A stretch of DNA of 64,000 nt from NCBI GenBank assembly GCA_963826535.1, contig CAWGXL010000011.1, positions 256,809-320,808 of the forward strand. Reading direction: 5' to 3'. This DNA comes from an uncultured bacterium. Its GTDB lineage: Bacteria > Patescibacteriota > Microgenomatia > Levybacterales > UBA12049. Of this stretch, positions 1,716 to 55,865 are shown one piece after another. The translations under genes were made by a program, and so were the position numbers. The notes under the pieces are model-generated. The model was not told the origin of the DNA and did not search any database. It saw only the letters and a list, made by a program, of their open reading frames with translations. Every line of letters begins with the position of its first letter. Position 1 is the stretch's first letter.

Positions 1716-1752
1716 AAACTGTCATGGTGTCAATAACTTATATTGACAGTTT
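1716..1752. promoter_or_regulatory. Operator-like 9-bp inverted repeat AAACTGTCA-N19-TGACAGTTT in the divergent intergenic region
   Basis: Perfect inverted repeat read directly. TTGACAG (-35-like) and TACATATAAT (-10-like) lie downstream toward the 1803 gene. Confidence 0.5.
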
Positions 1753-1802
1753 AATTAGATTACATATAATATATAATGTTACGCGCATAAATAATAAGTA
1801 AA

Positions 1803-2711
1803 ATGACCTTTTTGGAAAAATACGAACTACTTAAAAAATCTATTCCTGTTCCAGCTGTGGAAAACGATACACAATCGGTTGGTTGTGAATACTCAGACGG
1901 AATGATTGCCAGTAAAAACTGTTTCTATTGCGAAGGACTGAAGCAGGAAGACTGCATTTATGCTATATTGTCAGGGTATTCAACTAATATTGCAGATTGT
2001 CTCCACACGCACCAATCGGAAAAGTGTTACGCATGTGTTGCTTGTTCAAAATGTCATAGCTCCACTTATCTATTTGACTGCAATAACTCAACAGACTGCC
2101 ATTACTCAGCTTTACTAAATTCCTGTTCGGACTGTACCGGCTGTGTTGGCTTGACTCACAAGAAATATTGTATTTTTAATAAACAATTCTCCGAAGGAGA
2201 ATACAAAAAGCGGGTCGAAGAATTAAAAATGGAAAAACCTGAAATACTACTCGCGCAAATGATAGATTTGAAGCAAAAGATACCGCATCAGGCAAGCACT
2301 CAATTTAACAGCGAAAATTGTCCATATGGGGACTATATATATGATTCAAAGAACTGTTATTGGGTTTTTAATAGTTTATCCAATGAGAACTCCGGTTACG
2401 CTTTTGATACGACAGGGCTTTTAAATTGCTGGGATATGTATCGTGGAGGAGGTGCGCCTGGCAATGGCCAGAAGAGTGAACGTTGCTATGAAATGTTTTT
2501 TTCAAGGTTTAATTATGAGTGCGCATATCTAAATCACAGTGATAAATGTACTAATTGCATCTATGGAGATTGGCTTACTAACTGTAATGATTGCTTTGGT
2601 TGTATAGGGCTAAAGAGCAAAAAATACTGCATTTTGAATAATCAGCTAACTAAAGAGCAATATGAAAAGACTGTAAAAGGTATTAAAAAAGAGCTAGGGT
2701 GGAAAATTTAG
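1803..2711 (+). CDS. Cys-rich repeat protein, paralog 1 of 6 (novel family, most divergent copy)
   Basis: 302 aa with ~11% Cys. Shares the N-terminus MTFLEKYxLLKKSIPVPAV and the C-terminus KKYCILNNQLTKEQYEK..ELGWKI with five other ORFs. Confidence 0.85.
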   Translation: MTFLEKYELLKKSIPVPAVENDTQSVGCEYSDGMIASKNCFYCEGLKQEDCIYAILSGYSTNIADCLHTHQSEKCYACVACSKCHSSTYLFDCNNSTDCHYSALLNSCSDCTGCVGLTHKKYCIFNKQFSEGEYKKRVEELKMEKPEILLAQMIDLKQKIPHQASTQFNSENCPYGDYIYDSKNCYWVFNSLSNENSGYAFDTTGLLNCWDMYRGGGAPGNGQKSERCYEMFFSRFNYECAYLNHSDKCTNCIYGDWLTNCNDCFGCIGLKSKKYCILNNQLTKEQYEKTVKGIKKELGWKI

Positions 2712-2747
2712 TTTTTGAACAAATCCTAATCGTGCTATAATATCCTC

Positions 2748-3170
2748 ATGTTTACCAGTCGCATGGCTTTGAATTTGCTGCGTTACTCGCTTGGGGTGGT
2801 TTTTATTTGGTTTGGGGTACTTAAATTATTTAATGCTTCGCCGGATTTGGAAATACTTAAAGCTTCAATGCCTGCAGTACTAGGGCAGTCGCAATTGTTT
2901 TTTTTGGTGGTTTCAATTCTGGAAATACTTATCGGGATCGGGTTATTTCTGAAGCGTACGATCCGGTTTACAGTAATTGTTATGATCCTGGTTTTAATTG
3001 TAGTAACTGTTGCGGTTTTGCTGACGCAGGGGTTTGATCCGCGATTTCCTATTCTTTCGTTAGCCGGAGAATTTGCGCTGAAGAATCTTGTCCTAATCGC
3101 GGCAGGACTTGTATTGCTTACAAAAGTAGAGAAGAATGAAGAAATACAAGAGGATAAACACAAGCAATGA
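2748..3170 (+). CDS. Small multi-pass membrane protein (DoxX-like?)
   Basis: Four hydrophobic helices with an acidic C-terminal tail. Confidence 0.5.
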   Translation: MFTSRMALNLLRYSLGVVFIWFGVLKLFNASPDLEILKASMPAVLGQSQLFFLVVSILEILIGIGLFLKRTIRFTVIVMILVLIVVTVAVLLTQGFDPRFPILSLAGEFALKNLVLIAAGLVLLTKVEKNEEIQEDKHKQ

Positions 3171-3249
3171 ATACCCAAACAATATATTCTGAACACGTAC
3201 AAACAAAATTGACTTTTTCCTGTGTGATTGATATTATTCAAGTATAATT

Positions 3250-3474
3250 ATGCGTAAACATATTGTGTCTGATCCAAATATATTGAGCGGTAAGCCTGTG
3301 ATTGCGGGAACACGTATTCCTATTGTCCAGATACTTTTTTTACTAAAGACAGGCTATACGCTACAAGGAATCCAAGAGGAGTATCCCAATGTCAAACTTT
3401 CCACTTTACAACGCGTGTTAAACGAGTTGGCATCCGATATCTCTATTGCAAGGCATGACTCACAAAATTTATAA
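3250..3474 (+). CDS. DUF433-family protein (antitoxin-like)
   Basis: SGKPVIAGTRIPIVQIL motif characteristic of DUF433. Confidence 0.6.
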   Translation: MRKHIVSDPNILSGKPVIAGTRIPIVQILFLLKTGYTLQGIQEEYPNVKLSTLQRVLNELASDISIARHDSQNL

Positions 3475-3811
3475 ATTCAAACTGCTGCTTGATGAAGGTT
3501 TCTTCCGAAGACATAGGCTTGCAAAACTAAACCAGCTATATAACGTAAAACATATAACCGGAGATTTCCATAAAGAAGGTTTATCTGATCCTGACGTGGT
3601 AGAGATAGCAAAAAAGGAAAATCGGCTTGTGGTTACTTATAATGAAAAAGATTTCCGCACACTAGCAAATAAAAGCAAGGAAACAGGCGTGATCGGTATC
3701 TCTGATAATCTATCCGCGAAGCAGATTGATACGAAACTTACTGCGCTTTTAAAGCAAAGCAATCCAAAAGATCTTTTCGGCAGATTTACGCCTCTGAGCG
3801 GAGAAACATAA
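3446..3811 (+). CDS. DUF5615 / Mut7-C-like PIN-fold protein (toxin-like partner of DUF433)
   Basis: Overlaps the DUF433 gene. Resembles the three other DUF5615 ORFs in this window (LLLDE..., RLVVTYNEKDF). Confidence 0.55.
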   Translation: MQGMTHKIYKFKLLLDEGFFRRHRLAKLNQLYNVKHITGDFHKEGLSDPDVVEIAKKENRLVVTYNEKDFRTLANKSKETGVIGISDNLSAKQIDTKLTALLKQSNPKDLFGRFTPLSGET

Positions 3812-3838
3812 GCGGCTCACTTTGGGCACAAAAGAACT

Positions 3839-4747
3839 ATGAACTTCCTTGAAAAATATGATCTTCTGAAAAAATCTATTCCTGTACCTGCAATCATAAC
3901 CTTCCAATCAACTGATTGTGAATATGGAGATATCGTTTATAACAGTAAAAATTGTTACTATTGTTTCGATCCATCATATCTTATCGATGGGATGTATACC
4001 ACGCTTGGATTATGGAGTAATAAACTCGTAGATTGTACATCAGTATCGGAATCGGAAAAATGTTATCAATGTATTGATTCCAATAAATGTCATGACTCTA
4101 CATATCTTATGGATTGCAACAGTTGTACGGATTGCCATTTCTCAGCTTTTTTAAACTCTTGTACTGATTGTTTCGGTTGTGTTGCTTTAACGCATAAGAA
4201 ATATTGTATTTTTAACGAACAATTCTCCAAAGGAGAATATTTTAAAAAAGTTGAAGAATTAAAAAGAGAAAAACCGGAAAAGATTTTGGAGCAGATGATT
4301 GAATTAAAAAAACAGATACCTCATCCGGCTAGTCAGCAAGCCAATAATGAGAACTGTCCTTATGGCAATTATATTTACGATTCAAAAAATAGTTATTGGT
4401 GTTTTAATAGTTACTATGCTGAAAATTCAGGCTATAACTTCATAAGCGCGAACGCAAAGAACTGTTGGGATTTATATTGGTCAGGTAGTGGAGATCGAAG
4501 TCTTATAGCCGAGAGATGTTATGAACTAGTGATTTCAGGACGCTCTTCCTACGATTGTGCTTATTTATTACATAGCGATTTTTGTACAAACTGTTACTAT
4601 GGAGCATATCTTTTACACTGCTCCGACTGCTTCGGTTGTGTTGGGTTAAAAAATAAAAAATATTGCATTTTAAATAATCAACTTACGAAAGAACAATACG
4701 AAAAAGCACTTAAAGAGATCAAAAGTGAGCTGGGGTGGAAAATTTAA
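3839..4747 (+). CDS. Cys-rich repeat protein, paralog 2
   Basis: Same family, with a C-x2-C-x2-C-x8 15-residue periodicity. Confidence 0.85.
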   Translation: MNFLEKYDLLKKSIPVPAIITFQSTDCEYGDIVYNSKNCYYCFDPSYLIDGMYTTLGLWSNKLVDCTSVSESEKCYQCIDSNKCHDSTYLMDCNSCTDCHFSAFLNSCTDCFGCVALTHKKYCIFNEQFSKGEYFKKVEELKREKPEKILEQMIELKKQIPHPASQQANNENCPYGNYIYDSKNSYWCFNSYYAENSGYNFISANAKNCWDLYWSGSGDRSLIAERCYELVISGRSSYDCAYLLHSDFCTNCYYGAYLLHCSDCFGCVGLKNKKYCILNNQLTKEQYEKALKEIKSELGWKI

Positions 4748-4769
4748 TTATTAATGCTACGCAACATTT

Positions 4770-4860
4770 GTCATTCCGAGCGAAGTCGAGGAATCTCATA
4801 CCACAAAGTTGCTCAGTGATGCTAGATCCCTCCACTGCGCTACGCTTCGGTCGGGATGAC
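4770..4860. repeat. 91-bp MITE-like element with imperfect 16-bp terminal inverted repeats (GTCATTCCGAGCGAAG / CTTCGGTCGGGATGAC)
   Basis: Read directly. Intergenic, immediately 3' of paralog 2. Belongs to the GTCATTCC...GGAAT(GAC) repeat family also seen near 37.7 kb and 57.2 kb. Confidence 0.5.
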
Positions 4861-4878
4861 ACTGTATAAGATGAGTCA

Positions 4879-5226
4879 TTAAGTAGAGAGGTCTTTTATA
4901 AATTTGTTTTCTTTGTCTACTAAAATGTTGAGGGGTTTTATTGGTTTGTCAGTTAGTTCAAATCCCATGATGATGATCTCCTCGCCTACTTTGATGATAT
5001 GGGCGGCGGCGCCATTCATGCAAATTGTGCCTGAACCTCTTTTCCCTGGAATTATGTAAGTTTCCAGCCGGGCGCCTGTGGTATTGCTCACTATTAAAAC
5101 TTTTTCGCCAATCCATAAGCCGACTCTGTCAACTAAGTCAACGTCAATTGTCATACTGCCAATGTAGTTTGGATTAGCCTCGGTAACTGTGGCTTTATGG
5201 ATTTTTGATCGTAGCATCCATCTCAT
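4879..5226 (-). CDS. panD: Aspartate 1-decarboxylase (pyruvoyl-dependent)
   Basis: [28 protein letters not shown]... with the Gly-Ser self-cleavage site and the LETYII and [12 protein letters not shown] motifs. Confidence 0.85.
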
Positions 5227-5237
5227 ACGCTTTAATT

Positions 5238-5711
5238 TTACTTTATGCCTAATAATTCAACTTCAAAGATGAGAGTGGAGTTGGGAGGAATATCGCCAGC
5301 TCCCTGTTGTCCGTATCCCAGGTCCGGGGGAATGGTGAGTTTTCGTTTGCCGCCGACTTTCATTCCGATTACTCCGAGATCCCAGCCTTTGATAACCGCA
5401 CCGGTGTCAATTTGGGTCTCCAGCGGTTGACCGCGATCGTAGGAGCTGTCAAATTTTGTGCCGTTTGTCAGGGTGCCGAGATAATGGATGACTATTGTGT
5501 CACCGCTTTTAACTGCAGCGCCTGTGCCGGCTTGGGTATCTTCTATTTTTAATCCTAATGCGCCCGTTGTAGTATCCATAATTTTTGTATTATTTGCCGG
5601 TTCCGGTTGTTTGGCCGGGAGAAAGATGTCGGTAATGTGGAATGTAAATAACGATACTATTATTATTGCTAAAATTCCAACTACCAAAACGACTTGTGTC
5701 GATTTAGGCAT
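5238..5711 (-). CDS. FKBP-type peptidyl-prolyl cis-trans isomerase, membrane-anchored
   Basis: N-terminal TM helix followed by an FKBP domain ([27 protein letters not shown]...FEVELL). Confidence 0.8.
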
Positions 5712-5859
5712 TTGAGTTATTCTACACGAAACGAAGGATTGTTTGCAAGAGCATATTAGACTTTACTATATGTTTTTCCCTCATGCAAAACAATTCCTAA
5801 GATCTAAATCTTAAAGCCATGCGCCGGGTTTGTCCAATAACTAAGGCCGGAGCGCATTA

Positions 5860-6090
5860 TTAACGGCAGTTTTGTATGCATGATTTATATTTCGATGAGC
5901 AATAACCCCTGTGTGTCTGGACACAGAAATAGTAATATCGCAAACAAGCGTTCACGCAGGTTTGGCTGGGAGCGGCATAAGCATTCTGGACTAATGCGGA
6001 GGAGTTCCCTACCTTACCCACTAACGCAACTAAGGATATCACTCCGATGAACAATGCTACTCCTAAAAATGTAAATAGTATTTTTTTCAT
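5860..6090 (-). CDS. Small secreted Cys-rich peptide (76 aa precursor)
   Basis: Signal-peptide-like N-terminus plus a ~40-aa region with 6 Cys (CVNACLRYYYFCVQTHRGYCSSKYKSCIQNC). Confidence 0.45.
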   Translation of the reverse strand: MKKILFTFLGVALFIGVISLVALVGKVGNSSALVQNAYAAPSQTCVNACLRYYYFCVQTHRGYCSSKYKSCIQNCR

Positions 6091-6298
6091 AATACCACCC
6101 CCATCAAAAAATTAATTTTACGAGTGCATAATAAAATATCAGCCAAAATTTGTCAATAACCTGTAATATTTTTTTACATAAAACTCACACTAGAAATTTG
6201 AAGCGAAATTAAATGGCGAAACACAAAAATTTTCTTTTGACAAATGATTTAGAAATGCCTAGACTAGAATTAAGTCGCGCTTGTCAATTTAGCGATTT

Positions 6299-6901
6299 TT
6301 GTTTATGGCTAAAACTATGCATAGTATTAATCTGATGCCTAACCGTGGGGATACGGTACTTATACAATTTCTTAATTGGGCACTCACAATCGGACGCCTG
6401 CTTATCATCCTGGTTGAAACATTGGCGCTTGGTACGTTTCTTTACAGATTTTCTCTGGATATGCAGATCGTGGATTTAAAGGATAAAATAAAAGTTCAGC
6501 GTGCTTTTGTTACCAGTTATAAGAGCCAGGAAGAAATATTCAGGAATCTTCAGGACAGGCTTAATCTAGTCAAGAAATATGATACAAAAGCTGAGAGCAG
6601 TCCAAAGGCTTTAAGCGATATTATAGACATGGGACGCGGGTATATTACTTTTCGAAGTATATATATTTCCAATACGGTTTTTCGGATAGAAGCGTCAGCG
6701 CCGACAGTTGCACCTCTGACAGTGTTTGTTAATTCTCTGAAAAAGTATCCACTTATTAAGTCAATAAGCATAGATAAAGTGGAGAACAAGACATCAAGCG
6801 CCGAAATTATTGTGGGTATTAGCGCATATTTGACCGCGGATACAAAAGCCGCGGATACAACGGCCGAACAATTACAAACTCAGGAACCTTTTAAAGAATA
6901 A
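6299..6901 (+). CDS. pilN: PilN-like type IV pilus assembly protein
   Basis: N-terminal INLMP motif (PilN hallmark INLLP), one TM helix, then a coiled-coil periplasmic region. Confidence 0.5.
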   Translation: MFMAKTMHSINLMPNRGDTVLIQFLNWALTIGRLLIILVETLALGTFLYRFSLDMQIVDLKDKIKVQRAFVTSYKSQEEIFRNLQDRLNLVKKYDTKAESSPKALSDIIDMGRGYITFRSIYISNTVFRIEASAPTVAPLTVFVNSLKKYPLIKSISIDKVENKTSSAEIIVGISAYLTADTKAADTTAEQLQTQEPFKE

Positions 6902-6907
6902 AAAATT

Positions 6908-7534
6908 ATGATCAGACTGCCTAAGAATTTTTTTACAAACCTAACTCCCGCACAATATAAGGAGTATCTAAAGCTGTTACCTGACCTCAAGGATGAAAAG
7001 TCACAACTTTATGCCATGCTTGGGTTCACATTAGTCGCGATGTCGTTTTTTGGGATCTTTGCTATTAATCCTACACTTTCAACTATTGCAGAGTTAAAAC
7101 GGCAGCTCTCAGATTTGCATTTTGTTTACGAAAAACTTGTAACGAAAACACAAAATCTTAGTACGCTGCAGCAGAAATATCAATATTTATCAGGTGATCT
7201 TCCTGTAATAATTGATGCAATGCCCATGAAACCCGAGGTGCCAAAGTTTGTGGCTCAGATTAATGCGCTAATTGCGGAATCTAATTTAGAGACAAGAACA
7301 TTGCAGACTTATGGGGTAGAAATTACTCCGAATAAAAAAGTTCCTGAAAAACAAGCTTTATCTTATGTCTTTTCACTGGAAGCCGAGGGCACGTACGAGG
7401 AAATGCTTATATTTGTGCAGAAAATAACGCGGTTTAACCGACTGGTCACTATTGATATGCTCACTATTGCCAAAGACGAAAAAAGAGATGTGCTTATACT
7501 TAATTTGCGCGGCAGAGAGTATTTTAAACCGTAG
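6908..7534 (+). CDS. pilO: PilO-like pilus assembly protein
   Basis: Short cytoplasmic N-terminus, TM helix and coiled coil. Immediately downstream of the pilN-like gene. Confidence 0.45.
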   Translation: MIRLPKNFFTNLTPAQYKEYLKLLPDLKDEKSQLYAMLGFTLVAMSFFGIFAINPTLSTIAELKRQLSDLHFVYEKLVTKTQNLSTLQQKYQYLSGDLPVIIDAMPMKPEVPKFVAQINALIAESNLETRTLQTYGVEITPNKKVPEKQALSYVFSLEAEGTYEEMLIFVQKITRFNRLVTIDMLTIAKDEKRDVLILNLRGREYFKP

Positions 7535-7587
7535 CTTAAACCATCCGGGTATTATACGCTATATGAAATTTAATAAAAGAGGAGTAT

Positions 7588-8049
7588 ATGTTTAAACGAA
7601 GAGGAGTATTACTAGTTTTGTGGTTGACCTTTATTACGGTGGTGGCCTGGATCGGCTTTCATATATATCACATTACCGTAACTTCGACTATCAGCGAAGA
7701 GTTGCAATTGCAAATCATACCGATTGATCCTAATTTTGATATGGATACTATTAATAGACTAAAGGGGCGAGTAAAAGTTGAGCCGCTTTATCAATTTAAT
7801 GAGAACACCGCGTCCGCCTCCCCGCTTAGCGGGGCTGATGCAGACGTAGCTGACCCCGTTTCAATCGGGGCTGAGGCAAATTCTCCACCCGCCGACACGG
7901 GACAGGGTCCAATTGATGCAAGTCCAACGACCGACTCCCCGCAAAGCCTTGGCTCCGAGGGGCAAGCAGAGCCGGGCGACGAAAGGGCGACGGACGAGGG
8001 TATCTCTCCAACTGAAAGTACATTGCCGCTAGTAACCGGAGCGCCATGA
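7588..8049 (+). CDS. Membrane-anchored acidic S/P/D-rich protein (PilP-like?)
   Basis: N-terminal TM helix. Its ATGA stop overlaps the start of the next gene. Confidence 0.4.
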   Translation: MFKRRGVLLVLWLTFITVVAWIGFHIYHITVTSTISEELQLQIIPIDPNFDMDTINRLKGRVKVEPLYQFNENTASASPLSGADADVADPVSIGAEANSPPADTGQGPIDASPTTDSPQSLGSEGQAEPGDERATDEGISPTESTLPLVTGAP

Positions 8050-9632
8050 AAAAAAAGTTTTGGGATAAACGCATACCTTCTCTTCTAGGGCTCTTATTTT
8101 TAGCCATTTCGGTGGGTATGGTTGCGTGGTTTGGGGGAGGTTATACAGAACTCAGAGGAAGAGCTTCTGTTGAAGAAACTCCTAAAAATGTACAAATTTC
8201 TAATATAACTGACACATCCTTTACTGTTTTTTACACTACCGATATAAAGACGGAAGGCGCTGTAGCTTATGCCCGAGACCCGAGTTTCGGACAGGTAGGG
8301 CTTGACGACCGGGACCGGGAGAGCGGTAAACCCAGTTTGCGTCAGGTACACTACGTAACTCTAACACAACTCGATGCGGGCACGAAATATTATTTCGCGA
8401 TTCAGTCAGGAGCAACAACGCATCTAAATAATTCTCAACCATACGAGGTAACGACAGCGACAGTTAAGCTGGGGACTCCACCTAATAAGACTCCAATTGC
8501 AGGTACGGTTAATTTGGAGGATGGGAGTATTCCGCTGGAAGGAATTGTTTTTGTAGATACGTCGGCGTCCCCGCTCAGCGGGGCTGGGGCAAGCCCTTCG
8601 GCAGGCTTAGCGCCTAGCGGATCTGCGCAGACTTCGCAAATTCTATCCGTACTTCTGCGGGAAGACGGGAGTTATATCCTTCCTATTAGTTCCATGCGGA
8701 CAAAAGATCTGGCCACTTATATTGAATTTACTTCCGAAACTAAAATAAACCTGACCATTCTTAATGCAACAAGTCAGTCACGAGTCTCACTGCTCGCAAA
8801 TCAGACAAGTCCGGTTCCTTTGATTACATTATCCAAGGATTATGATTTTGCCGCTAATTCCCAGTCAATAACAAACCCCACAGCTTCCGGGTCCGGCACC
8901 ACGCTTAGCGGGGCCGGGGCTGCTTCTACTTCAGGTGAGTTAACTCCAAATGATTCCAATTCAGGATTTCCATTATTTCCCGCCACTGTTGCCAGCGGGC
9001 CGGCTATATTGACACCAGAAAACGATGAAAATTTTATTGACCCACAGCCTATATTTGCCGGAACGGCGCTGCCTAACGCAACAGTCGAAATTATAATTCA
9101 GTCAGATGAAACACTACAGGCAAGTGTTCAGTCGGATAATTTTGGTAATTGGCAATACCGGCCGCCTCTACCACTTACACCAGGCGAGCATATTTTTACA
9201 ATTATTGCCCGAGATACTAATGGCATCCTGCAGACTATTAATCGAAATTTTACTGTGTATGCGTCAGGCAGCCAATTTAACGAACCATCGATTGAGCCGA
9301 CAATTGATCCTAATGCAACTCCGACCAGTGCGGCTTCAGCTACACCAACACAATCCCCAACGCCTACAATAAATGTAACTCCTATATCACTGCCCACACC
9401 TACTACGTCATCTATTTCAGCTACGCCCGACTTGACACTAACAATTAGCCCGACACCAAATTTGGCGCTTACAATGGCCGCATTATCTGCGACCCCTGAT
9501 CCCGCTTCCCTTACAGCAACAGCCATGGCAACAGGCGCCACTATTGCTCCAAGCGGAAATTTTACATTGCTTTTTGCCGGTTTTATTGCTGCTCTTTCAA
9601 TTACCGCAGGTTTTGTGCTATTCTTCTTGTAG
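8046..9632 (+). CDS. Large surface protein with an Fn3-like domain, a T/P/S-rich linker and a C-terminal hydrophobic anchor
   Basis: N-terminal TM helix, an Fn3-like block (ISNITDTSFTVFYTTD...YYFAIQSG), Thr/Pro/Ser-rich tracts and a terminal TM segment (FAGFIAALSITAGFVLFFL). Confidence 0.6.
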   Translation: MKKKFWDKRIPSLLGLLFLAISVGMVAWFGGGYTELRGRASVEETPKNVQISNITDTSFTVFYTTDIKTEGAVAYARDPSFGQVGLDDRDRESGKPSLRQVHYVTLTQLDAGTKYYFAIQSGATTHLNNSQPYEVTTATVKLGTPPNKTPIAGTVNLEDGSIPLEGIVFVDTSASPLSGAGASPSAGLAPSGSAQTSQILSVLLREDGSYILPISSMRTKDLATYIEFTSETKINLTILNATSQSRVSLLANQTSPVPLITLSKDYDFAANSQSITNPTASGSGTTLSGAGAASTSGELTPNDSNSGFPLFPATVASGPAILTPENDENFIDPQPIFAGTALPNATVEIIIQSDETLQASVQSDNFGNWQYRPPLPLTPGEHIFTIIARDTNGILQTINRNFTVYASGSQFNEPSIEPTIDPNATPTSAASATPTQSPTPTINVTPISLPTPTTSSISATPDLTLTISPTPNLALTMAALSATPDPASLTATAMATGATIAPSGNFTLLFAGFIAALSITAGFVLFFL

Positions 9633-9647
9633 AAAAATTCCAGCGCT

Positions 9648-10556
9648 ATGACCTTTCTTGAGAAATTTGAGCTTCTGAAAAAATCTATTCCTGTTCCGGC
9701 TATTACAATAGGCCCAAATACGGTTGAGTGCGAATATTCAGATGCAATCTATATCGGTAAAAATTGTTATCACTGTTTTGACGGATATAAGATCTTTGAC
9801 AGTATGTTTACAAACTTTGGATGGGGAAATAAGGTTGTAGATTGCGAATATGTGACTGAATCTGAGAAAGTTTATGAATGCGTTGAATGTACTAAATGCT
9901 ATAACTCGACATTTCTAATAGACTGTAATAACTCGACAGATTGCCATTTTTCTTCATTATTAAATTCCTGCAGCGATTGTTTTGGATGTGTTGGTTTAAC
10001 TCACAAAAAATATTGTATTTTTAACCGGCAATATAGCAAAGAAGAATATCTGAAAAAAGTTGAAGAGTTAAAAAAACAAGAAGCTCAAAAGAATCTTAAG
10101 CAAATGCTTGAAATAAAACAGACAATTCCTCACCCGGCAAGCCAACAAGCCAATAACGAAAATTGCGCATATGGCAATTATATATATGGATCCAAAAACT
10201 GCTATTGGTGTTTTAATACATACTATAGTGAAAATTCAGGATTTACCTACTTCAGTGGAGCAGCGAAGAACTGTTGGGATATGTTTCAAGCAGGAGGTCA
10301 ACCGGATATTAAAATATTTTCAGAGCTTTGCTATGAGAATGTATATACAGATACATGTTACAATAGCGCATATTTAACATTTAGTGACAATTGTACAAAT
10401 TGCTCATACAGCGATCATCTTTTAAACTGCACCGATTGCTTCGGCTGCGTGGGGCTCAAAAATAAAAAATGCTGCATTTTAAATAATCAACTAAATCAAG
10501 TACAATACGAAAAAGCTGTAAAGAGCATAAAAAATGAGTTGGGATGGAAAAATTAG
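9648..10556 (+). CDS. Cys-rich repeat protein, paralog 3
   Basis: Same family. Starts 16 nt after the surface-protein gene. Confidence 0.85.
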   Translation: MTFLEKFELLKKSIPVPAITIGPNTVECEYSDAIYIGKNCYHCFDGYKIFDSMFTNFGWGNKVVDCEYVTESEKVYECVECTKCYNSTFLIDCNNSTDCHFSSLLNSCSDCFGCVGLTHKKYCIFNRQYSKEEYLKKVEELKKQEAQKNLKQMLEIKQTIPHPASQQANNENCAYGNYIYGSKNCYWCFNTYYSENSGFTYFSGAAKNCWDMFQAGGQPDIKIFSELCYENVYTDTCYNSAYLTFSDNCTNCSYSDHLLNCTDCFGCVGLKNKKCCILNNQLNQVQYEKAVKSIKNELGWKN

Positions 10557-10583
10557 AATCGATGAAAAATAATAATTAATGTT

Positions 10584-11480
10584 ATGACATTTTTAGAAAA
10601 ATATACATTGTTGAAAAAATCAATCCCAGTACCGGCGGTGACATTTGTGGGGAATATGGATTCCTCATACTCGAATTTTATGTGGTTGTGTAAAAATTGC
10701 CAATATTGTTTTCATGGATATAAACTTTATGATAGTTTATATGCAATCCACGCATGGGGACAAACTCTAGTTGACTGCCTTTATGTCACTGAATCCGAAA
10801 ATTGCTACGAATGTGTTGAATGTACAAAATGTTATGGTTCTACATACCTTATCGAAGGCAATAATTCGACAAATTGCCATTTTTCTGCACTTTTGAGCTC
10901 CTGCACCGATTGTTTTGGCTGCGTGGGGTTAACCAACAAAAAATATTGTATTTTTAATAAACAATTCTCAAAAGGAGATTACTTTGAGAAGTTAGAAGAA
11001 TTGAAAAAAGAACCATCAGAAAAGATCCTAACGCACATGTTTGATTTAAAAAAACAAATCCCCCATCCGGCAAGCCAGCAAGCTAATACTGAAAATTGTC
11101 CTTATGGAAATTATATATATGATTCAAAAAACAGTTATTGGTGTTTTAATAGTTATTATATAGAGAATAGCGGTTATAATACTTTTAGCGGATGGGCAAA
11201 AAACTGTTGGGATGTCTTTTTATTCGGAGAGCCTAATGGGGTTAATGAGTTATGTTATGAACATTTTTATACGGCACGATGTTTTAACTCAGCCTTTCTT
11301 ACTCATTCTACTGACTGTACCAATTGCCATAATAGTACGTATCTCAGAAACTGCTCAGACTGCTTCGGGTGTGTCGGACTAGCCAATAAAAAGTATTGCA
11401 TTTTGAATAATCAACTAACAAAAGACCAATATGAAATAGCTGTGAAAGAAATTAAGAAAGAATTGGGATGGAAAAATTAG
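10584..11480 (+). CDS. Cys-rich repeat protein, paralog 4
   Basis: Same family. Near-identical to paralog 6 in the N-terminal variable block. Confidence 0.85.
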   Translation: MTFLEKYTLLKKSIPVPAVTFVGNMDSSYSNFMWLCKNCQYCFHGYKLYDSLYAIHAWGQTLVDCLYVTESENCYECVECTKCYGSTYLIEGNNSTNCHFSALLSSCTDCFGCVGLTNKKYCIFNKQFSKGDYFEKLEELKKEPSEKILTHMFDLKKQIPHPASQQANTENCPYGNYIYDSKNSYWCFNSYYIENSGYNTFSGWAKNCWDVFLFGEPNGVNELCYEHFYTARCFNSAFLTHSTDCTNCHNSTYLRNCSDCFGCVGLANKKYCILNNQLTKDQYEIAVKEIKKELGWKN

Positions 11481-11508
11481 AATCGATGAAAAATAAAATT
11501 AAAATAGT

Positions 11509-12408
11509 ATGACATTTATTGAAAATTATGAGGTCCTGAAAAAATCTATTCCTGTTCCGGCTGTCTGGATTGATACGGTTACTAAAGACGCTGACTATAT
11601 TGATTATACTTATAGAAGCAAAGGCAGCTATTATGCTTTTGGGGGGTATTATCTTGAAGACTGTTTGTATACGGAATTTTGCGGCTGGGGGAATAAGCTT
11701 GTAGATTCACATTCAGTTACGAAAGCAGAAAAATGTTACTTTTGTATTAATTGCGACCAATGTCATAACTGTAGTTATCTAATGGATTGCAATAGCTGTA
11801 CAGATTGCCACTTCTCTGCATTTTTAAGTTCCTGCAACGATTGTTTTGGCTGCGTTGCTTTAACTCATAAAAAATATTGTATTTTTAACAAACAGTATAC
11901 AAAGCAAGAATATTTTAAAAAAGTAAAAGAATTAAAAAAAGAGGAACCTGATAATATCTTTGCACTAATGTTTGAGTTAAAAGAAAAAATTCCGCATCCT
12001 GCAAGCCGGCAAGTCGATAACGTAAATTGTCCTTATGGAAATTACATATACAATTCAAAAAACTGTTATTGGTCTTTTGGTACTTTTGAAAGCACAAACA
12101 GCGGTTATACTTATTATTGTTCGAGATTAAAAAATTGTTGGGACGTGTTCAGTTCAGGCGGAGAGCAGGGTACTGCGAAATGTTATTCTATTGTGAGTAC
12201 ACAGAACAGCGTTGACTCTGCGTTTTTAGATTTCTGTGAAGGATGTAGTAATTGTTATTATAGTCTTAGTTTGATAAACTGCACCGATTGTTTCGGTTGT
12301 GTGGGACTTAAAAATAAAAAATATTGTATTTTGAATAATCAGTTAACTAAAGAGAAATACGAAAGAGCAATGAAGAGCATCATAAAAGAATTAGAGTGGA
12401 AATTTTAG
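11509..12408 (+). CDS. Cys-rich repeat protein, paralog 5
   Basis: Same family. Confidence 0.85.
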   Translation: MTFIENYEVLKKSIPVPAVWIDTVTKDADYIDYTYRSKGSYYAFGGYYLEDCLYTEFCGWGNKLVDSHSVTKAEKCYFCINCDQCHNCSYLMDCNSCTDCHFSAFLSSCNDCFGCVALTHKKYCIFNKQYTKQEYFKKVKELKKEEPDNIFALMFELKEKIPHPASRQVDNVNCPYGNYIYNSKNCYWSFGTFESTNSGYTYYCSRLKNCWDVFSSGGEQGTAKCYSIVSTQNSVDSAFLDFCEGCSNCYYSLSLINCTDCFGCVGLKNKKYCILNNQLTKEKYERAMKSIIKELEWKF

Positions 12409-12465
12409 TGGGTGAGACTCGTCATTTTTTTTGTAAAAATTGTTCACTATGGTATACTAAGCGTG

Positions 12466-12705
12466 ATGAAGACTACGCGGTACTTTAGAGAACAAGTATT
12501 GCGTAAAAGATCTTTTATAAAGCAGTCATGGATCAAGCTAGCGCTTGCAAGACCGGATAAAAAGGAGATTCAAACAGACGGAAGAATGCGTTACTGGATT
12601 TATATATCAACCCTTAGGAAATATTTACGGGTTGTTACTTTATCAGACGGCGAGACGGTACATAACGCATTCCCGGATAGAAATTATAAAAAGGAAAAGC
12701 TATGA
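12466..12705 (+). CDS. DUF4258-family protein (toxin-like)
   Basis: Probable ATG at 12466, preceded by TTGTAA-16-TATACT at 12431-12459. Paired by a 4-nt overlap with the DUF2283-like gene. Confidence 0.5.
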   Translation: MKTTRYFREQVLRKRSFIKQSWIKLALARPDKKEIQTDGRMRYWIYISTLRKYLRVVTLSDGETVHNAFPDRNYKKEKL

Positions 12706-12917
12706 AATTTAACTATTATAAAGACACAGATTCACTCTATATTGATCTTTCTGAAAAAAAAAGTGTGGATTCCAAAGAAGTGAGTCCGGGAATTGTGCTG
12801 GATTTTGATGCAAAAGGAAATCTGGTTGGCATTGATATAGATCACGCAAGTAAGCATGTTAATTTAAAACGCCTGGAAACAGAAGGCGTTTCCTTTTCTA
12901 CAATTGTCTCGACATAA
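12702..12917 (+). CDS. DUF2283-family protein (antitoxin-like)
   Basis: MKFNYYKDTDSLYIDLSEKK... typical of DUF2283 (YDxxxDxLYI). Confidence 0.55.
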   Translation: MKFNYYKDTDSLYIDLSEKKSVDSKEVSPGIVLDFDAKGNLVGIDIDHASKHVNLKRLETEGVSFSTIVST

Positions 12918-12938
12918 CCCTTTGTTGAGGTTTCAATC

Positions 12939-13835
12939 ATGACCTTTCTTGAAAAATACGGGCTACTGGAAAAATCCGTTCCTATACCGGCGGTGACATT
13001 TATGGGGAATATGGATTCTTCATTTTCGGATTTTATGTGGATGTGTAAAAATTGCCAATATTGTTTTTTTGGATATAAACTTTATGACAGTCTCTATGCA
13101 ATCCATTCATGGGGGCAAACTCTAGTTGACTGCCTTTATGTCACCGAATCCGAAAATTGTTATGAATGTGTTGAATGCACAAAATGCTTTGGCTCTACAT
13201 ATCTTATAGATTGCGATAATAGTACAGATTGTCATTTTTCCGCACTACTCAACTCCTGCAACGATTGCTTCGGGTGTGTGGGTTTGAAACATAAGAGAAA
13301 CTGCATTTTTAATAAACAATACACCAAGGAAGAATATTTTAAAAAGCACGAAGAATTGAAAAATGAAAATCCCCAAAAGATGCTTAAGCAAATGCTTGAG
13401 TTAAAACAACAAATACCGCATCCGGCAAGCCAACAAGCCAATACTGAAAATTGTCCATATGGCAACTATATTTATGATTCAAATAGCAGTTATTGGTGTT
13501 TTAATAGCTACTATATTGAGAATTGCGGATATAATACTAATAGCGCTTGGGCAAAAAACTGTTGGGACGTATTCAAGTTTGGAGATCCTAAGGGAACTAA
13601 TGAATTGTGCTATGAACATTTCTATACGACGCTGTGTTATAACTCTGCCTTTCTTACACATTCTACCAGCTGTACCGAATGCCATTATAGTTCTTATTTA
13701 AGTAACTGCTCCAATTGCTTCGGATGTTTCGGGTTAAAGAATAAAAAATATTGTATTTTGAATAATCAGTTAACTAAAGAACAATATGAAAGCGCTGTAA
13801 AAGAAATTAGGAAAGAGCTTGGGTGGAAAATTTAG
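12939..13835 (+). CDS. Cys-rich repeat protein, paralog 6
   Basis: Same family. Confidence 0.85.
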   Translation: MTFLEKYGLLEKSVPIPAVTFMGNMDSSFSDFMWMCKNCQYCFFGYKLYDSLYAIHSWGQTLVDCLYVTESENCYECVECTKCFGSTYLIDCDNSTDCHFSALLNSCNDCFGCVGLKHKRNCIFNKQYTKEEYFKKHEELKNENPQKMLKQMLELKQQIPHPASQQANTENCPYGNYIYDSNSSYWCFNSYYIENCGYNTNSAWAKNCWDVFKFGDPKGTNELCYEHFYTTLCYNSAFLTHSTSCTECHYSSYLSNCSNCFGCFGLKNKKYCILNNQLTKEQYESAVKEIRKELGWKI

Positions 13836-13836
13836 T

Positions 13837-15096
13837 ATGAAAATTGCAATTATTGGGGCGGGGTTTACTGGGCTAACGGCCGCATATAAGATGGCTAAAG
13901 GAGGGCATAAAGTTACAGTTTTTGAAAAAGACAGTCAGCCGGGCGGTCTGGCAATTGGGTATAAGGAAAAAGGGTGGGATTGGACATTGGAGGCGTTTTA
14001 TCATCATTGGTTCACTAACGACTTCGCAGTACTAACTCTGGCAAAAGAACTAAATTTCCCGGTAATTATCAAGCGGCCGAAAACTTCTCAGCTTGTTGAC
14101 GGACAAATTGTCCAACTTGACTCACCCTCTACGCTCCTCGCATTTAAAAAGCTCTCAATTCCTGAACGAATACAGATGGGGTTTGTGCTGGCATTTCTAC
14201 GTTATAATCCCGTTTGGAAACCACTTGAACGGGTAACTGCAACTGCGTTTTTAGCAAAAACTATTGGAAGGCGCGCATATAAAATTATGTGGGAACCATT
14301 ATTGGTGGGCAAGTTTGGGAAATATGCGGATCAAATTTCTCTGGCTTGGTTTTGGGCACGAATAGCAAAACGGACGACAAATCTTGCATATCCGGAGGGA
14401 GGCTTTCTTCGATTTGCGAAACACCTGGAAAACGCTATAAAACAAAAAGGCGGAGTTATTAATTATAACGCATCAATTGATACAATTGCAGAAAAAAACG
14501 GGAAAGTAAAGATAGGAAAGTTTGGCTTATTTGATAAAGCTATTGTCACTCTTCCTTCATTTGCATTTTTAAAGCTTGCTCCGCAACTGCCGCCGCAGTA
14601 TCAAGCGTCACTTATGCAGCTTAAAGGTCTTGGGGCAATTGTGGTTGTGATGCGACTTAAGAAACCATTTTTCCCTGATGATACTTATTGGCTAAGTGTG
14701 TGTGATAAAAAAGCACCGGTCCTGGCAATTGTTGAACACACAAATATTATGAACAGTAAACACTATAATAATGAGCATCTTGTATACCTCGGGAACTACC
14801 TGCCAAAGGAACATAAATACTACTCTTTGACAGCTGAAGAACTACTCAAGACATTTGACCCGTTTCTAAAAACAATTAATCCTGATTATAATAAGTCACT
14901 AATAGGAGTGAAAAAATTCGATGTCCCGTTTGCGCAACCTATTATCCCAATTAACTATTCTCATATGATTCCCCCATTTGAAACGCCTATAAAAAATGTT
15001 TATCTGGCAAATATGCAACAGGTGTATCCATGGGACCGGGGAACGAATTATGCTGTGGAATTGGGAGAAAAAGTTGCAAAGTTAATCGGCGGATAA
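13837..15096 (+). CDS. FAD/NAD(P)-binding oxidoreductase (amine oxidase / phytoene desaturase-like)
   Basis: MKIAIIGAGFTGLTAAYKMAKGGHKVTVFEKDSQPGGL Rossmann motif. ATG one nt after the paralog 6 stop. Confidence 0.7.
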   Translation: MKIAIIGAGFTGLTAAYKMAKGGHKVTVFEKDSQPGGLAIGYKEKGWDWTLEAFYHHWFTNDFAVLTLAKELNFPVIIKRPKTSQLVDGQIVQLDSPSTLLAFKKLSIPERIQMGFVLAFLRYNPVWKPLERVTATAFLAKTIGRRAYKIMWEPLLVGKFGKYADQISLAWFWARIAKRTTNLAYPEGGFLRFAKHLENAIKQKGGVINYNASIDTIAEKNGKVKIGKFGLFDKAIVTLPSFAFLKLAPQLPPQYQASLMQLKGLGAIVVVMRLKKPFFPDDTYWLSVCDKKAPVLAIVEHTNIMNSKHYNNEHLVYLGNYLPKEHKYYSLTAEELLKTFDPFLKTINPDYNKSLIGVKKFDVPFAQPIIPINYSHMIPPFETPIKNVYLANMQQVYPWDRGTNYAVELGEKVAKLIGG

Positions 15097-55493: not shown

Positions 55494-55865
55494 CTATGCA
55501 GTTTGCTTCTTCGCTACTATCGCGCCAAGAGAACGAAAGCGTCCTCGGAAGTAATTAGAACCTTGCTTTATGAGTAGCGCGGTAAGCTTTGTATCGAGCA
55601 GCGTGCGCGGCCAAGTTTCGGGAATACCAATAATCCCAGGCGTATTTTTTCGCAATAAAGGACGAAAGTGTTTGACGTTGCGAGTAAGAATAATGCGTCC
55701 CTGTTTTATTGCCAACTCATGTATTGGCGGGTCATCCATTCCTCCATGATGCAGGTCGTGATTGATGTGTTTTACGTCAAAGCGTTGATTAAGGCGAGGT
55801 AGAAACTGACGGGGTGGTAAGTGCTCATCGAGTAACAATTTGTGTTTATAAAACGGTTTCGGCAT
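55494..55865 (-). CDS. DUF5615-like PIN-fold protein
   Basis: KHKLLLDEHLPP...RIILTRNVKHF. Start trimmed to MPKPFYK. Confidence 0.5.
   Translation of the reverse strand: MPKPFYKHKLLLDEHLPPRQFLPRLNQRFDVKHINHDLHHGGMDDPPIHELAIKQGRIILTRNVKHFRPLLRKNTPGIIGIPETWPRTLLDTKLTALLIKQGSNYFRGRFRSLGAIVAKKQTA

Follow-up and report, generated by a model that had tools for sequence, protein, structure and literature searches.

Qnr and MfpA, pentapeptide-repeat proteins folded as quadrilateral beta-helices, mimic DNA. Beetle antifreeze proteins form a narrow beta-helix with a 12-residue coil, and that of Tenebrio molitor (TmAFP, PDB 1EZG) has inward positions C2, S5, C8, and A11, with side chains oriented out-in-out-out-in along the chain (PMC8038014). 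Cys-Xaa-Xaa tripeptide periodicity is the hallmark of heterocycloanthracin/sonorensin-type precursors, for which TIGR03601 is the model (Haft 2009, PMC2674419). Patescibacteria carry 5,713 VirD4-like genes, which mostly do not adjoin virB4 (PMC12102498). The locus described here lies in a 64-kb stretch of a Patescibacteria contig (the window).

An earlier note proposed six same-strand open reading frames in the window, and these are confirmed, all on the plus strand and with products of 298 to 302 aa that are 53 to 80% identical. The products of par2 to par6 share 53 to 64% identity with that of par1, par4 and par6 stand at the top of the six-copy range (80%), and tblastn found no seventh copy in the window.

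879 to 1673, minus strand: TrmB-family winged-helix regulator (Pfam TrmB, E=4.4e-6), divergent from paralogue 1
1716 to 1770, plus strand: divergent promoter region (promoter scan and inverted-repeat search)
1803 to 2711, plus strand: paralogue 1 (par1), 302 aa, sequence P0046
3839 to 4747, plus strand: paralogue 2 (par2), 302 aa, sequence P0001, the copy used for the AF2 model
9648 to 10556, plus strand: paralogue 3 (par3), 302 aa, P0031
10584 to 11480, plus strand: paralogue 4 (par4), 298 aa, P0039
11509 to 12408, plus strand: paralogue 5 (par5), 299 aa, P0064
12939 to 13835, plus strand: paralogue 6 (par6), 298 aa, P0053

The term tandem array fits par3, par4, and par5, which are separated by spacers of 27 nt (par3-par4) and 28 nt (par4-par5), but not the remaining copies, which are spaced by 3 to 9 unrelated genes; par3 starts 15 nt past the stop of a 528-aa Big_13/fn3 gene. 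Toxin-antitoxin-like pairs break up the window array. The description as a six-copy locus holds for the window and is otherwise an understatement, as at least 28 family proteins, including all six window products, are recorded on the same 894,453-bp contig.

These proteins belong to a very large, unnamed family of Cys-rich, predicted beta-helix proteins that spans the tiny-celled Patescibacteria (CPR). A short-form query gave 804 matches, there are, at the 50% identity level, 3,464 clusters with E≤1e-3 (1,145 with E≤1e-30), a long-form query gave at least 5,670 clusters, and 455 stretches are confirmed among genomes that represent species from many Patescibacteria lineages. Genomes carry from 1 to 28 or more deeply divergent copies, and as many as 10 can be arrayed on one strand within 20 kb. 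The commonest form (∼560 aa) has treble-clef zinc fingers added at both ends, which are Arg-rich, with a likeness between the C-terminal one and the second LIM finger (E=0.008). The window copies are the core-only short form without flanking fingers, and although a separate gene for a ∼100-aa zinc-finger protein adjoins the copies at two short-form loci that were examined (L013 and L016), there is no such gene in the window. Database names of relatives are merely 'hypothetical protein' or 'zinc-ribbon domain containing protein', and the initial impression that no characterised family is represented is sustained: the six proteins have no match in Pfam, PADLOC, or PDB sequences, profile searches give no solved structural relative and no homology to any characterised protein, and no description of the family was found in the literature.

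Alignment of the six copies supports the conserved termini reported previously, with a near-invariant N-terminus (M1, F3, E5, L10, K12, S13, P15, P17, and A18) and a C-terminus (KKYCILNNQL...ELGWK) that is invariant or nearly so. A module of ∼125 aa occurs twice in tandem in each protein, in agreement with the twofold organization first suggested, and the two halves are 37% identical over 126 aa (E=1e-27). The module is predicted to form a thin rod, a beta-helix of some eight coils of 12 residues, with an inward-facing residue at every third position that is mostly Cys and otherwise Ser, Leu, Val, or Ile, and the rod end is predicted to be closed by a conserved cap (C-x2-C-F-G-C-V-G-L-x3-K-Y-C-I-x-N-x-Q) plus an alpha-helix. 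The AF2 model of par2 (pLDDT 92.3, pTM 0.83) contains two regular beta-solenoid rods and a helical hairpin, as had been anticipated in the proposal of a solenoid, which thus stands as a prediction; the long-form model also has a pTM of 0.83.

3899 to 4213, plus strand: predicted par2 beta-helix rod 1, residues 21-125 (DSSP of the AF2 model)
3899 to 4048, plus strand: rod 1 variable coils, residues 21-70 (entropy profile)
4160 to 4222, plus strand: rod 1 cap, C108-x2-C111-F-G-C114-V-x-L-x3-K-Y-C123-I-F-N-x-Q (Cys-column table)
4223 to 4318, plus strand: predicted helical hairpin linking the rods, helices at residues 131-142 and 146-158 (AF2 model)
4334 to 4678, plus strand: predicted beta-helix rod 2, residues 166-280 (AF2 model and comparison of half 1 with half 2)
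4439 to 4618, plus strand: rod 2 variable coils, residues 201-260 (entropy profile)
After the rod 2 variable coils, plus strand: rod 2 cap, C261-x2-C264-F-G-C267-V-G-L-x3-K-Y-C276-I-L-N-N-Q (Cys-column table)
Residues 284-298 of par2, plus strand: predicted C-terminal helix (AF2 model)

Columns that carry Cys recur at every third residue, and the autocorrelation of the profile is maximal at lag 12 (r=0.38-0.41, versus 0.27-0.32 at lag 15), so that the 15-residue period proposed at first is replaced by a period of 3 residues and a coil of 12. The Cys content, put at about 11% in the earlier note, is 8.1 to 8.7%. The 24 to 26 Cys residues of each protein, with 9 to 12 CxxC and 3 to 7 CxxCxxC motifs, together with the zinc fingers flanking the long-form core, raise the possibility of a metal-binding or redox protein, the metallo-solenoid of the earlier note, whose Cys ladders would hold Zn, Fe-S, or Cu or serve as a thiol buffer. 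Both caps contain C-x2-C-x2-C-x8-C, invariant in 6/6 copies, and C261 and C264 are gained and lost jointly across the family (phi 0.46). However, most Cys columns are just 20 to 75% Cys and, across 236 homologues, exchange freely with Ser, Leu, Val, and Ile, CxxC knuckles show no general co-occurrence (i/i+3, phi +0.05), Fer4, radical-SAM, and DnaJ-CXXCXGXG models are unmatched at E≤1, and a storage role leaves the diversified paralogues and the link to an ATPase (see below) unexplained; we consider this function improbable. Co-occupancy is anti-correlated at i/i+6 (phi -0.17) and, alone among the three lags, positive at i/i+12, that of stacked ladders (phi +0.17). From these sequence patterns a metal or disulfide role appears weakened for most cysteines, and the two cap motifs are plausibly the only metal-site candidates left.

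Because of the Cys-Xaa-Xaa repeats, we also considered precursors of thiazole/oxazole-modified, heterocycloanthracin/sonorensin-like peptides, and 3 of the 120 listed phage-type relatives have a precomputed match to PF27784 (Bacteriocin_sonorensin), weak in the one looked up. This is already disfavored and would be very surprising, as the proteins are 300 to 560 aa rather than 50 to 100 aa, the repeats lie within the chain, ahead of a conserved cap and helix, and a fold is confidently predicted. Moreover, cyclodehydratase, dehydrogenase, and docking genes are not recurrent among 118 adjacent genes, and NCBIfam gave just a spurious SufB match at E≤1 and none to TIGR03601 (this model being unconfirmed in the library copy scanned).

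The diversified part of each protein is the first coils of each rod. Among 24 full-length paralogues on the same contig, entropy is 1.5 to 2.1 bits at residues 21-70 and 1.3 to 2.1 bits at residues 201-260, compared with 0.4 to 0.9 bits in the termini and cap motifs and 0.9 to 1.2 bits in other conserved stretches, which upholds the description of two variable blocks, one opening each half. Calling these hypervariable was an overstatement: synonymous sites are saturated among the window copies (pS 0.70-0.85), and dN/dS is 0.08 to 0.19 for par4/par6, the single measurable pair. In all other pairs pN is 0.12 to 0.20 in conserved parts versus 0.33 to 0.46 in variable blocks. These are old paralogues, subject to purifying selection and without an arms-race signature (saturated dS, with low omega where measurable), no PADLOC model matches the family itself, and there is no toxin gene; the suggestion of a polymorphic immunity-type family thus gains no direct support. 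Within the ordered coils, conservation is higher at core than at surface positions (p=0.001 and 0.013), whereas in the variable blocks the core is variable too, and the diversity there could reflect relaxed constraint and not surface diversification.

None of the six proteins has a hydrophobic segment (maximum Kyte-Doolittle 19-residue window ≤1.18), so that a transmembrane segment is absent as well as the signal peptide whose absence had been noted; the proteins are soluble, cytoplasmic, and mildly acidic (pI 5.6-6.5). Small phage-borne homologues (75 to 250 aa) have near-perfect (C-S-x-C-x-x)n repeats, 11 to 26% Cys, and a pI of 4.4 to 4.7 in 3/5 checked (6.3 and 7.8 in the other two). They match phrog_15341, a phage family without assigned function, at 4e-10 to 2e-5, and all six window proteins match it weakly (E from 3.6e-8, for par5, to 5.7e-3). 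The phage proteins share with the window family the cap CFGC..K.Y.ICN.Q.TKEEY but consist of a single rod, lacking the second.

The 879-1673 product matches (E=6.7e-31) the profile of a neighbor family, N0, derived from array-flanking regulators at 23 further loci. N0 accounts for 11.6% of genes at distance 1 from a family gene, then 5.2%, 1.1%, and 0%, with 0/337 at distances of four or more, and is upstream and divergent in 12/13 cases. A perfect sigma-70-type promoter (TTGACA-16-TATAAT, 12/12 matches) lies at 1743-1770, 33 nt before the par1 ATG, and is overlapped by two perfect inverted repeats, AAACTGTCA/TGACAGTTT at 1716-1724 / 1744-1752 and TGTCAATA/TATTGACA at 1728-1735 / 1741-1748. 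We infer that these repeats are a candidate operator of the TrmB-type regulator; the palindrome was not found upstream of the other paralogues.

A VirD4/HerA-like ATPase gene adjoins family genes in 25/80 loci, a partial association, and is downstream and co-directional in 10/11. A family gene lies within 3 kb for 26/27 members of the array-linked ATPase clade, a value biased because this clade was sampled largely through family-selected loci; in the sole unbiased subset, chosen regardless of arrays, 7/8 of the closest ATPase relatives adjoin family genes. A second clade is array-adjacent in just 1/44 and sits beside a sigma-like HTH gene, with recurrent neighbors that we take to be FtsQ-, MurG-, and SecF-like. 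The array-linked ATPase matches Pfam T4SS-DNA_transf, TrwB_AAD_bind, and TraG-D_C, as well as PADLOC mad8 (1e-12 to 1e-15) and HerA, and has no transmembrane segment. It is absent from the window, and for the window copies the link would be one transferred from other genomes. Other genes adjoining family genes include those for Fic (five), ORF6N (three), PemK, HEPN, and NYN proteins.

The Pfam matches and the abundance of VirD4-like genes in Patescibacteria (PMC12102498) are compatible with an effector repertoire of T4SS substrates, delivered into the epibiont's host bacterium with the ATPase as coupling protein, and the family is multi-copy and diversified even though a signal peptide is absent, with an Arg-rich zinc-finger region at the end of the long forms. 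We find this doubtful, as the N-terminal membrane anchor that canonical coupling proteins have is missing from the ATPase, which is mostly away from virB4 (PMC12102498), no T4SS component was seen to recur among adjacent genes, and export would require a rigid, Cys-rich rod bearing zinc fingers to be unfolded first.

The rods could instead be housekeeping nucleic-acid or cell-cycle factors, in which zinc-finger-flanked rods bind DNA or RNA, or mimic DNA, and work together with an FtsK/HerA-like translocase paralogue, as in DNA uptake, segregation, or repair, and paralogy reflects dosage or sub-functionalisation and not conflict. The conserved neighborhood of the sister ATPase clade, the treble-clef fingers with their LIM likeness, the near universality of the family in Patescibacteria, its purifying selection, and the acidity of the rods, exceeded in three of the phage homologues, are in keeping with such a role. 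It is nevertheless unlikely given the range of copy number and the deep divergence of copies, the location among toxin-antitoxin-like and Fic/HEPN-type genes, and the complete lack of fingers in short forms.

Our preferred interpretation, held tentatively, is a repertoire of rod-shaped recognition proteins acting with the ATPase in a conflict or host-interaction role. The genes would be old, individually maintained variants controlled by the divergently transcribed TrmB-type regulator, and their products would cooperate with a dedicated VirD4/HerA-type paralogue, a soluble hexameric ATPase, docking on a common partner by the invariant termini and caps and engaging a different target per paralogue through the variable coils. 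The likeliest setting, in our view, is an intracellular conflict system recognizing phage or mobile-element components, for which the phage single-rod homologues may be decoys.

Comparison with VirD4-type coupling proteins and HerA-type defense ATPases, drawn from other genomes, rests on the shared Pfam and PADLOC models and on a hexameric-ATPase gene likewise adjoining genes of presumed partners, although the array-linked ATPase lacks the membrane anchor and is outside a virB4 cluster, and no known effector or defense partner was found to resemble the Cys-rich rods. The resemblance to heterocycloanthracin/sonorensin precursors (TIGR03601; PF27784) is compositional: both have Cys-Xaa-Xaa runs, but the proteins of the family are long and folded, their repeats internal and their caps conserved, and maturation genes are absent nearby. 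TmAFP and the family have in common periods of 3 and 12 and an inward side chain at every third position, which in the family is C/S/small or aliphatic. The two are not homologous in sequence (profile E=9.6; no Pfam match), however, and the family lacks the TCT/TxT ice-binding ladder, is cytoplasmic rather than secreted, has anti-correlated Cys occupancy at the i/i+6 disulfide pair of TmAFP, comprises two-rod proteins with a specific cap and helix on each rod, and occurs in bacteria and phages rather than insects. Qnr/MfpA-type proteins and left-handed hexapeptide beta-helices are likewise regular rods built from very short repeats. Their periods are 5 and 20 and 6 and 18, respectively, compared to 3 and 12 here, the Pfam Pentapeptide and Hexapep models do not match the family, and its core, unlike theirs, is lined with Cys, but all embody the general idea of a rigid rod whose surface is patterned.

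The six paralogues par1 to par6, numbered 5' to 3' and all on the + strand (1803-2711, 3839-4747, 9648-10556, 10584-11480, 11509-12408, and 12939-13835), are confirmed by ORF listing as genes for proteins of 298 to 302 aa with exactly the starts assigned in the earlier note, and tblastn with the paralogues found no seventh or later copy in the 64-kb window. In a MAFFT alignment they are 53 to 64% identical to the first copy (mean column identity, 74%), and the conserved ends described from the sequence stand, with MTFLEKY.LLKKSIPVPA at the N terminus and KKYCILNNQL...ELGWK at the C terminus nearly invariant. The proposed internal two-fold duplication is also real, since, within one protein, the first and second halves are 37% identical across 126 aligned residues (E=1e-27). 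As noted previously there is no signal peptide, nor is there a hydrophobic segment in any of the six, and their pI values are 5.6 to 6.5; the cysteine content, put earlier at about 11%, is 8.1 to 8.7% when computed. The description as a tandem array holds for par3, par4, and par5, which follow one another with spacers of 27 to 28 nt, but the other copies are split by unrelated genes, among them DoxX, two toxin-antitoxin-like pairs, panD, an FKBP gene, and a pilN/pilO-like operon. Three of the intervening modules are as follows.

3250-3811, + strand: DUF433/DUF5615 pair between par1 and par2, the ORFs overlapping by 29 nt
6299-9632, + strand: pilus-assembly-like operon within the array, with a PilN-like protein (200 aa, no Pfam match), PilO (PF04350), and two more ORFs
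12412-12917, + strand: two-gene cassette between par5 and par6, a 97-aa ORF without a Pfam match and a 71-aa DUF2283 ORF, with a 4-nt overlap

The DUF433/DUF5615 pair is presumably an antitoxin and PIN-like toxin module, and a second DUF5615 ORF (55494-55982, - strand) adjoins a TrmB-like gene at 54714-55463. The pilus-like operon includes an ORF of 153 aa whose tail is of low complexity, and the last gene of the operon codes for a 528-aa Big_13/fn3 protein that is Ser/Thr/Pro-rich and has a hydrophobic C terminus. Because par3 starts only 15 nt past the stop of this last gene, par3 to par5 may be co-transcribed with the operon. A link to type IV pili through the Pil genes between par2 and par3 was considered and set aside, as Pil genes are not recurrent beside arrays elsewhere. 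Two further ORFs lie close to the paralogues: a 76-aa ORF (5860-6090, - strand), unrelated to the family, has an N-terminal hydrophobic, signal-like segment, six cysteines in its final 32 residues, and an 11/12 match to a sigma-70-type promoter ahead of it (6156-6128), and a flavin amine-oxidase-type ORF (13819-15096, + strand) has a TTG start as called and overlaps the end of par6 by 17 nt, although its true start is probably an ATG a few codons downstream, at the MKIAIIGAG... Rossmann motif. Scans of the window for tRNAs and Rfam families found nothing.

The products of the six genes are identical to database proteins P0046, P0001, P0031, P0039, P0064, and P0053, and at least 28 family proteins, these six included, are on record for a single 894,453-bp contig, where at least 28 genes of ∼900 nt make up about 2.8% of the 894-kb sequence. 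Four of the 28 are truncated (213 to 278 aa), and the 24 full-length copies share 53 to 80% pairwise identity (median, 61%). Among these 24, the two variable blocks reported earlier are evident, with entropies of 1.5 to 2.1 bits at residues 21 to 70 and 1.3 to 2.1 bits at residues 201 to 260, compared with 0.4 to 0.9 bits at the termini and cap motifs (the conserved Cys motifs closing each half) and 0.9 to 1.2 bits in the remaining conserved stretches. Synonymous sites are saturated between paralogues (pS, 0.70 to 0.85), leaving 14 of 15 pairs not measurable for dN/dS, and par4/par6, the only measurable pair, gives 0.08 to 0.19. The paralogues are thus old duplicates under purifying selection and do not constitute a rapidly diversifying locus.

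The repeat structure was analyzed with 236 distant homologues aligned to the profile. All of the Cys columns keep a strict three-residue register, at positions 27, 30, 39, 42 ... 123 in the first predicted β-helix (rod 1) and 240 ... 276 in the second (rod 2), and are 20 to 90% Cys, swapping with Ser and with Leu/Val/Ile. Only lags divisible by 3 give a positive profile autocorrelation, with the maximum at lag 12 (r=0.38 to 0.41 in rod 1 and 0.24 to 0.27 in rod 2), and lag 15 gives no stronger signal than lags 9, 18, or 21; periods of 3 and 12 therefore replace the 15-residue period first proposed. Cys co-occupancy is anti-correlated at i/i+6 (mean phi, -0.17) and positive only at i/i+12 (phi, +0.17), forming stacked ladders. 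From this column behavior, interchangeable among Cys, Ser, and aliphatic residues and with positive co-occupancy at i/i+12 alone, most of the cysteines appear to be replaceable core residues. The two caps are the exception: C108, C111, C114, C267, and C276 are 86 to 96% Cys family-wide and are the only five positions to exceed 85%, C261 and C264 are gained and lost jointly across the family (phi, 0.46), and all eight cap cysteines are invariant in par1 to par6. The caps are thus a possible metal site, but a metal or redox role for the family as a whole, set against the replaceable cysteines of the rods, is improbable.

A confident AlphaFold2 model of a window protein, built from a 74-sequence alignment (pLDDT, 92.3; pTM, 0.83), starts with a helix at the N terminus and ends with another at the C terminus. 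Between them, two series of strands, the first long and made up of very short strands, flank a helical hairpin at residues 131 to 158, and the predicted fold is a double β-helix rod. Protein classes listed beside this model are trimeric-autotransporter heads, the ryegrass, budworm, and Tenebrio antifreeze proteins, and hexapeptide transferases; Foldseek comparison with viral models gave TM scores of 0.18 at most. In the ordered coils the inward positions are less variable than the others (0.40 versus 0.98 bits, p=0.001; 0.60 versus 1.38 bits, p=0.013). Variation confined to the surface is not supported for block 21-70, where both classes vary and the core (1.51 bits) is not significantly different from the surface (1.82 bits).

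The earlier suggestion that no characterised family is involved is borne out, as the six proteins have no match in Pfam or NCBIfam (E≤1), in PADLOC, or in a profile search of PDB sequences, apart from one spurious SufB match as the sole NCBIfam return; the PADLOC defence models have no significant match to two long forms either. The PDB profile searches returned no more than a C2H2 match attributable to chance and, for the long-form C terminus, a weak match to a LIM finger, and no description of the family, zf_Tbcl, or DUF8128 was found in the literature searched. The family is nonetheless large. One short form (core only, ∼300 aa) as query matched 804 proteins, none with a Pfam domain, a profile search returned 3,464 representatives of 50%-identity clusters (1,145 at E≤1e-30), and one long form matched at least 5,670 clusters at 90% identity, all of the long-form matches listed being annotated as hypothetical except for one 'zinc-ribbon domain containing protein.' In species-representative genomes, 455 family stretches were confirmed, and the hosts include Peregrinibacteria/Peribacteria, Gracilibacteria, Nomura-, Sacchari-, Gottesman-, Berkel-, Kerfeld-, Ryan-, and Staskawiczbacteria, WWE3, and others. 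Close family members also occur in metagenome-assembled genomes (loci L002/L003, L020, L068, L071, and L078) labelled 'uncultured Gammaproteobacteria' or 'Bdellovibrionales'; because the family is otherwise confined to Patescibacteria, these labels may be wrong, or the sequences may reflect contamination or transfer.

The majority of members are long forms of ∼550 to 590 aa, organized in three parts.

N terminus, ∼100 aa: treble-clef finger, Pfam zf_Tbcl
Core, ∼300 aa: double rod
C-terminal region, ∼160 aa: conserved EWGEFFP...SPFxYNE...YFPL motif and a second finger, zf_Tbcl_2

A model of the long form, confident overall (pTM, 0.83), has no informative structural neighbour. The window copies are all of the core-only short form, and there is no separate finger protein in the window. 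At two other loci (L013, 6290-7488, and L016, 10027-15641), a ∼100-aa protein consisting of just the two finger regions adjoins short forms and an ATPase gene, and the long form appears to be split there into 'rods' and 'fingers'; in P0267 the family is fused to a GNAT domain. Phage-borne relatives from IMG/VR and metagenomes are 75 to 250 aa with 11 to 26% cysteine, and have a single rod in which (C-S-x-C-x-x)n hexads repeat almost perfectly, together with the family cap and helix. They match phrog_15341, which the six window proteins match weakly, and tblastn found no match to the family among GenBank phages. An extreme single-rod member is a 251-aa viral protein with 26% cysteine on an IMG/VR contig (L081, 4962-5717, + strand), which has ∼30 almost perfect C-S-D/R-C-S/F-x hexads followed by the family cap.

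In 80 loci, family genes are arranged in arrays on one strand, with 1 to 10 copies per ∼20 kb, and clustering of the flanking genes yields two recurrent neighbours, a TrmB-family regulator and a VirD4/HerA-like ATPase. The regulator (∼254 aa) accounts for 11.6% of directly adjacent genes, a share that falls to 5.2% at the second position, 1.1% at the third, and 0 of 337 beyond; in 12 of 13 cases it is located upstream and transcribed divergently. Three ORFs in the window match the profile of these regulators (N0), of which only the first flanks a family gene.

879-1673, - strand: TrmB-type regulator, divergent from par1 (N0 profile E=6.7e-31)
49613-49918: TrmB-like ORF, a ∼100-aa fragment (N0 profile E=2.3e-17)
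54714-55463: TrmB-like ORF (N0 profile E=6.8e-40)

The region between the regulator and par1 contains a perfect sigma-70-type promoter 33 nt ahead of par1, overlapped by two perfect inverted repeats. This palindrome was rejected as an operator common to all of the paralogues, being absent before the other copies.

The ATPase (∼720 to 770 aa) matches Pfam T4SS-DNA_transf, TrwB, TraG-D_C, and DUF87, has a precomputed DUF8128 match, and matches the PADLOC mad8 and HerA models; no transmembrane segment was found. It adjoins the family in 25 of 80 loci and is downstream and co-directional in 10 of 11, and no ATPase of this type is present in the window. A simple two-way linkage was discarded, as only 11 of the 80 loci obtained in the reverse search of metagenome contigs, with the ATPase as query, contain a family gene. 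This low figure arises because the ATPases fall into two clades, as resolved by clustering 85 near-full-length sequences: in the array-linked clade a family gene lies within 3 kb in 26 of 27, a proportion inflated by the choice of loci through family genes, and in the sister clade only 1 of 44 is array-adjacent. Among the eight closest ATPase relatives recovered regardless of arrays, seven adjoin family genes; on this basis we accept the dedicated ATPase paralogue as a true partner of the family.

The non-array ATPases (L095-L167, metagenome contigs) have a neighbourhood of their own that is conserved across Patescibacteria, which suggests that these 'orphan coupling proteins' have a housekeeping role. 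The gene immediately upstream codes, in 35 loci, for a ∼350-aa protein whose HTH resembles sigma-70 region 4, and downstream are genes that we read as FtsQ-like, MurG, and SecF-like. For the family itself, a housekeeping role in nucleic-acid or cell-cycle processes, which the neighbourhood of the sister ATPases might favour, is distinctly unlikely. A survey counted 5,713 VirD4-like genes in Patescibacteria, only 148 of them near virB4, left their role open, and could not place the 'orphan' ones in secretion systems (PMC12102498). The main rival reading is that the rods are a repertoire of translocated effectors; this fits an epibiotic lifestyle and the T4CP-like domains of the ATPase, but with both a membrane anchor and linkage to a type IV secretion system (T4SS) missing we consider it unlikely.

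We tentatively favour a role in intracellular conflict, since the ATPase is soluble and matches models of defence systems (HerA and mad8), the arrays sit amid toxin-antitoxin and Fic/HEPN-type genes, and single-rod homologues occur in phages, as is typical of decoys. The other array-adjacent genes are heterogeneous and include Fic (5), ORF6N (3), PemK, HEPN, and NYN. In such a system the conserved termini and caps would provide a common interaction with the ATPase, the zinc-finger module, or both, the divergent first coils would give each paralogue a separate specificity, and the whole repertoire would be under the control of the TrmB-type protein. It is conceivable, if far from assured, that regulator, diversified rods, and dedicated soluble ATPase together form a lineage-wide recognition repertoire for immunity or host manipulation, which phages mimic.

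Patescibacteria account for much of bacterial diversity, have ∼1-Mb genomes, live attached to other microbes, are CRISPR-poor, and have lineage-specific genes mostly without known function. The family spans this radiation with up to ten genes per array, without a curated model or a literature description found, and places one dedicated clade of the numerous 'orphan' VirD4-like ATPases in a genetic context. If correct, the three-part system, with zinc fingers either fused to the rods or encoded separately, would be either the main innate immunity of Patescibacteria or their host-manipulation toolkit, not recognised before, and the rods, if recognition modules, would add a new type of scaffold on which binding proteins diversify and offer a way into the dealings of these bacteria with phages or hosts. 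The finding is broad and well founded and opens testable questions about Patescibacteria, and the mechanism is a proposal.

We rate the family and its gene system as categorically new, with function inferred from context and the ATPase and zinc-finger partner absent from the window, because each family that can be named fails at least one defining feature and the curated libraries and searchable literature are silent. A polymorphic immunity-type array, as the earlier note had envisaged, is not supported, as no toxin-type gene flanks the window arrays or recurs in the 80 loci. Linkage to a VirD4-type ATPase is seen in 25 of 80 family loci, and for 26 of 27 ATPases of the dedicated clade, and is absent from the window, and unlike T4SS coupling proteins the array ATPase has no membrane anchor and no T4SS genes recur nearby. 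Unlike DnaJ-type CXXCXGXG and ferredoxin-type Fe-S proteins, the six window proteins have no Pfam match, and the family, with only five positions above 85% Cys, does not have four conserved ligands per site. Pentapeptide proteins (period 5, 20 residues per coil) differ in that lag 5 is negative in the family, and hexapeptide helices (period 6, 18 per coil) in that the signal at lags 6 and 18 falls below that at lag 12; neither set of Pfam models matches at E≤1.

The family shares Cys-Xaa-Xaa tripeptide repeats with the TOMM precursors of the heterocycloanthracin/sonorensin type, a likeness that is compositional. Those precursors are short (∼50 to 100 aa) and combine a leader with a low-complexity core at the C terminus, whereas the window proteins are 298 to 302 aa and the family repeats are internal, followed by a conserved cap and helix. 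The NCBIfam scan gave no TIGR03601 match among the six, PF27784 matches just a few phage relatives (weakly where looked up), and no cyclodehydratase, dehydrogenase, or docking gene is recurrent among the 118 genes directly adjacent to arrays; that the proteins are RiPP precursors is extremely improbable. In the Tenebrio antifreeze protein TmAFP, TCTxSxxCxxAx repeats form a 12-residue coil in an out-in-out-out-in... pattern with every third residue inward (PMC8038014). The family departs from it in having no ice-binding ladder (0 TCT and 0 to 1 TxT per window protein), in the anti-correlation (phi, -0.17) of the i/i+6 cysteines that form the TmAFP disulfide pair, and in having no signal peptide or hydrophobic segment where TmAFP is secreted; the sequence profile comparison with TmAFP (1EZG) gave E=9.6, which is not significant. 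Like TmAFP, it has Cys/Ser/aliphatic columns at every third residue and an autocorrelation maximum at lag 12, and if the model is right the rods would be a bacterial and phage 12-residue β-helix, a geometry hitherto described for beetle antifreeze proteins.
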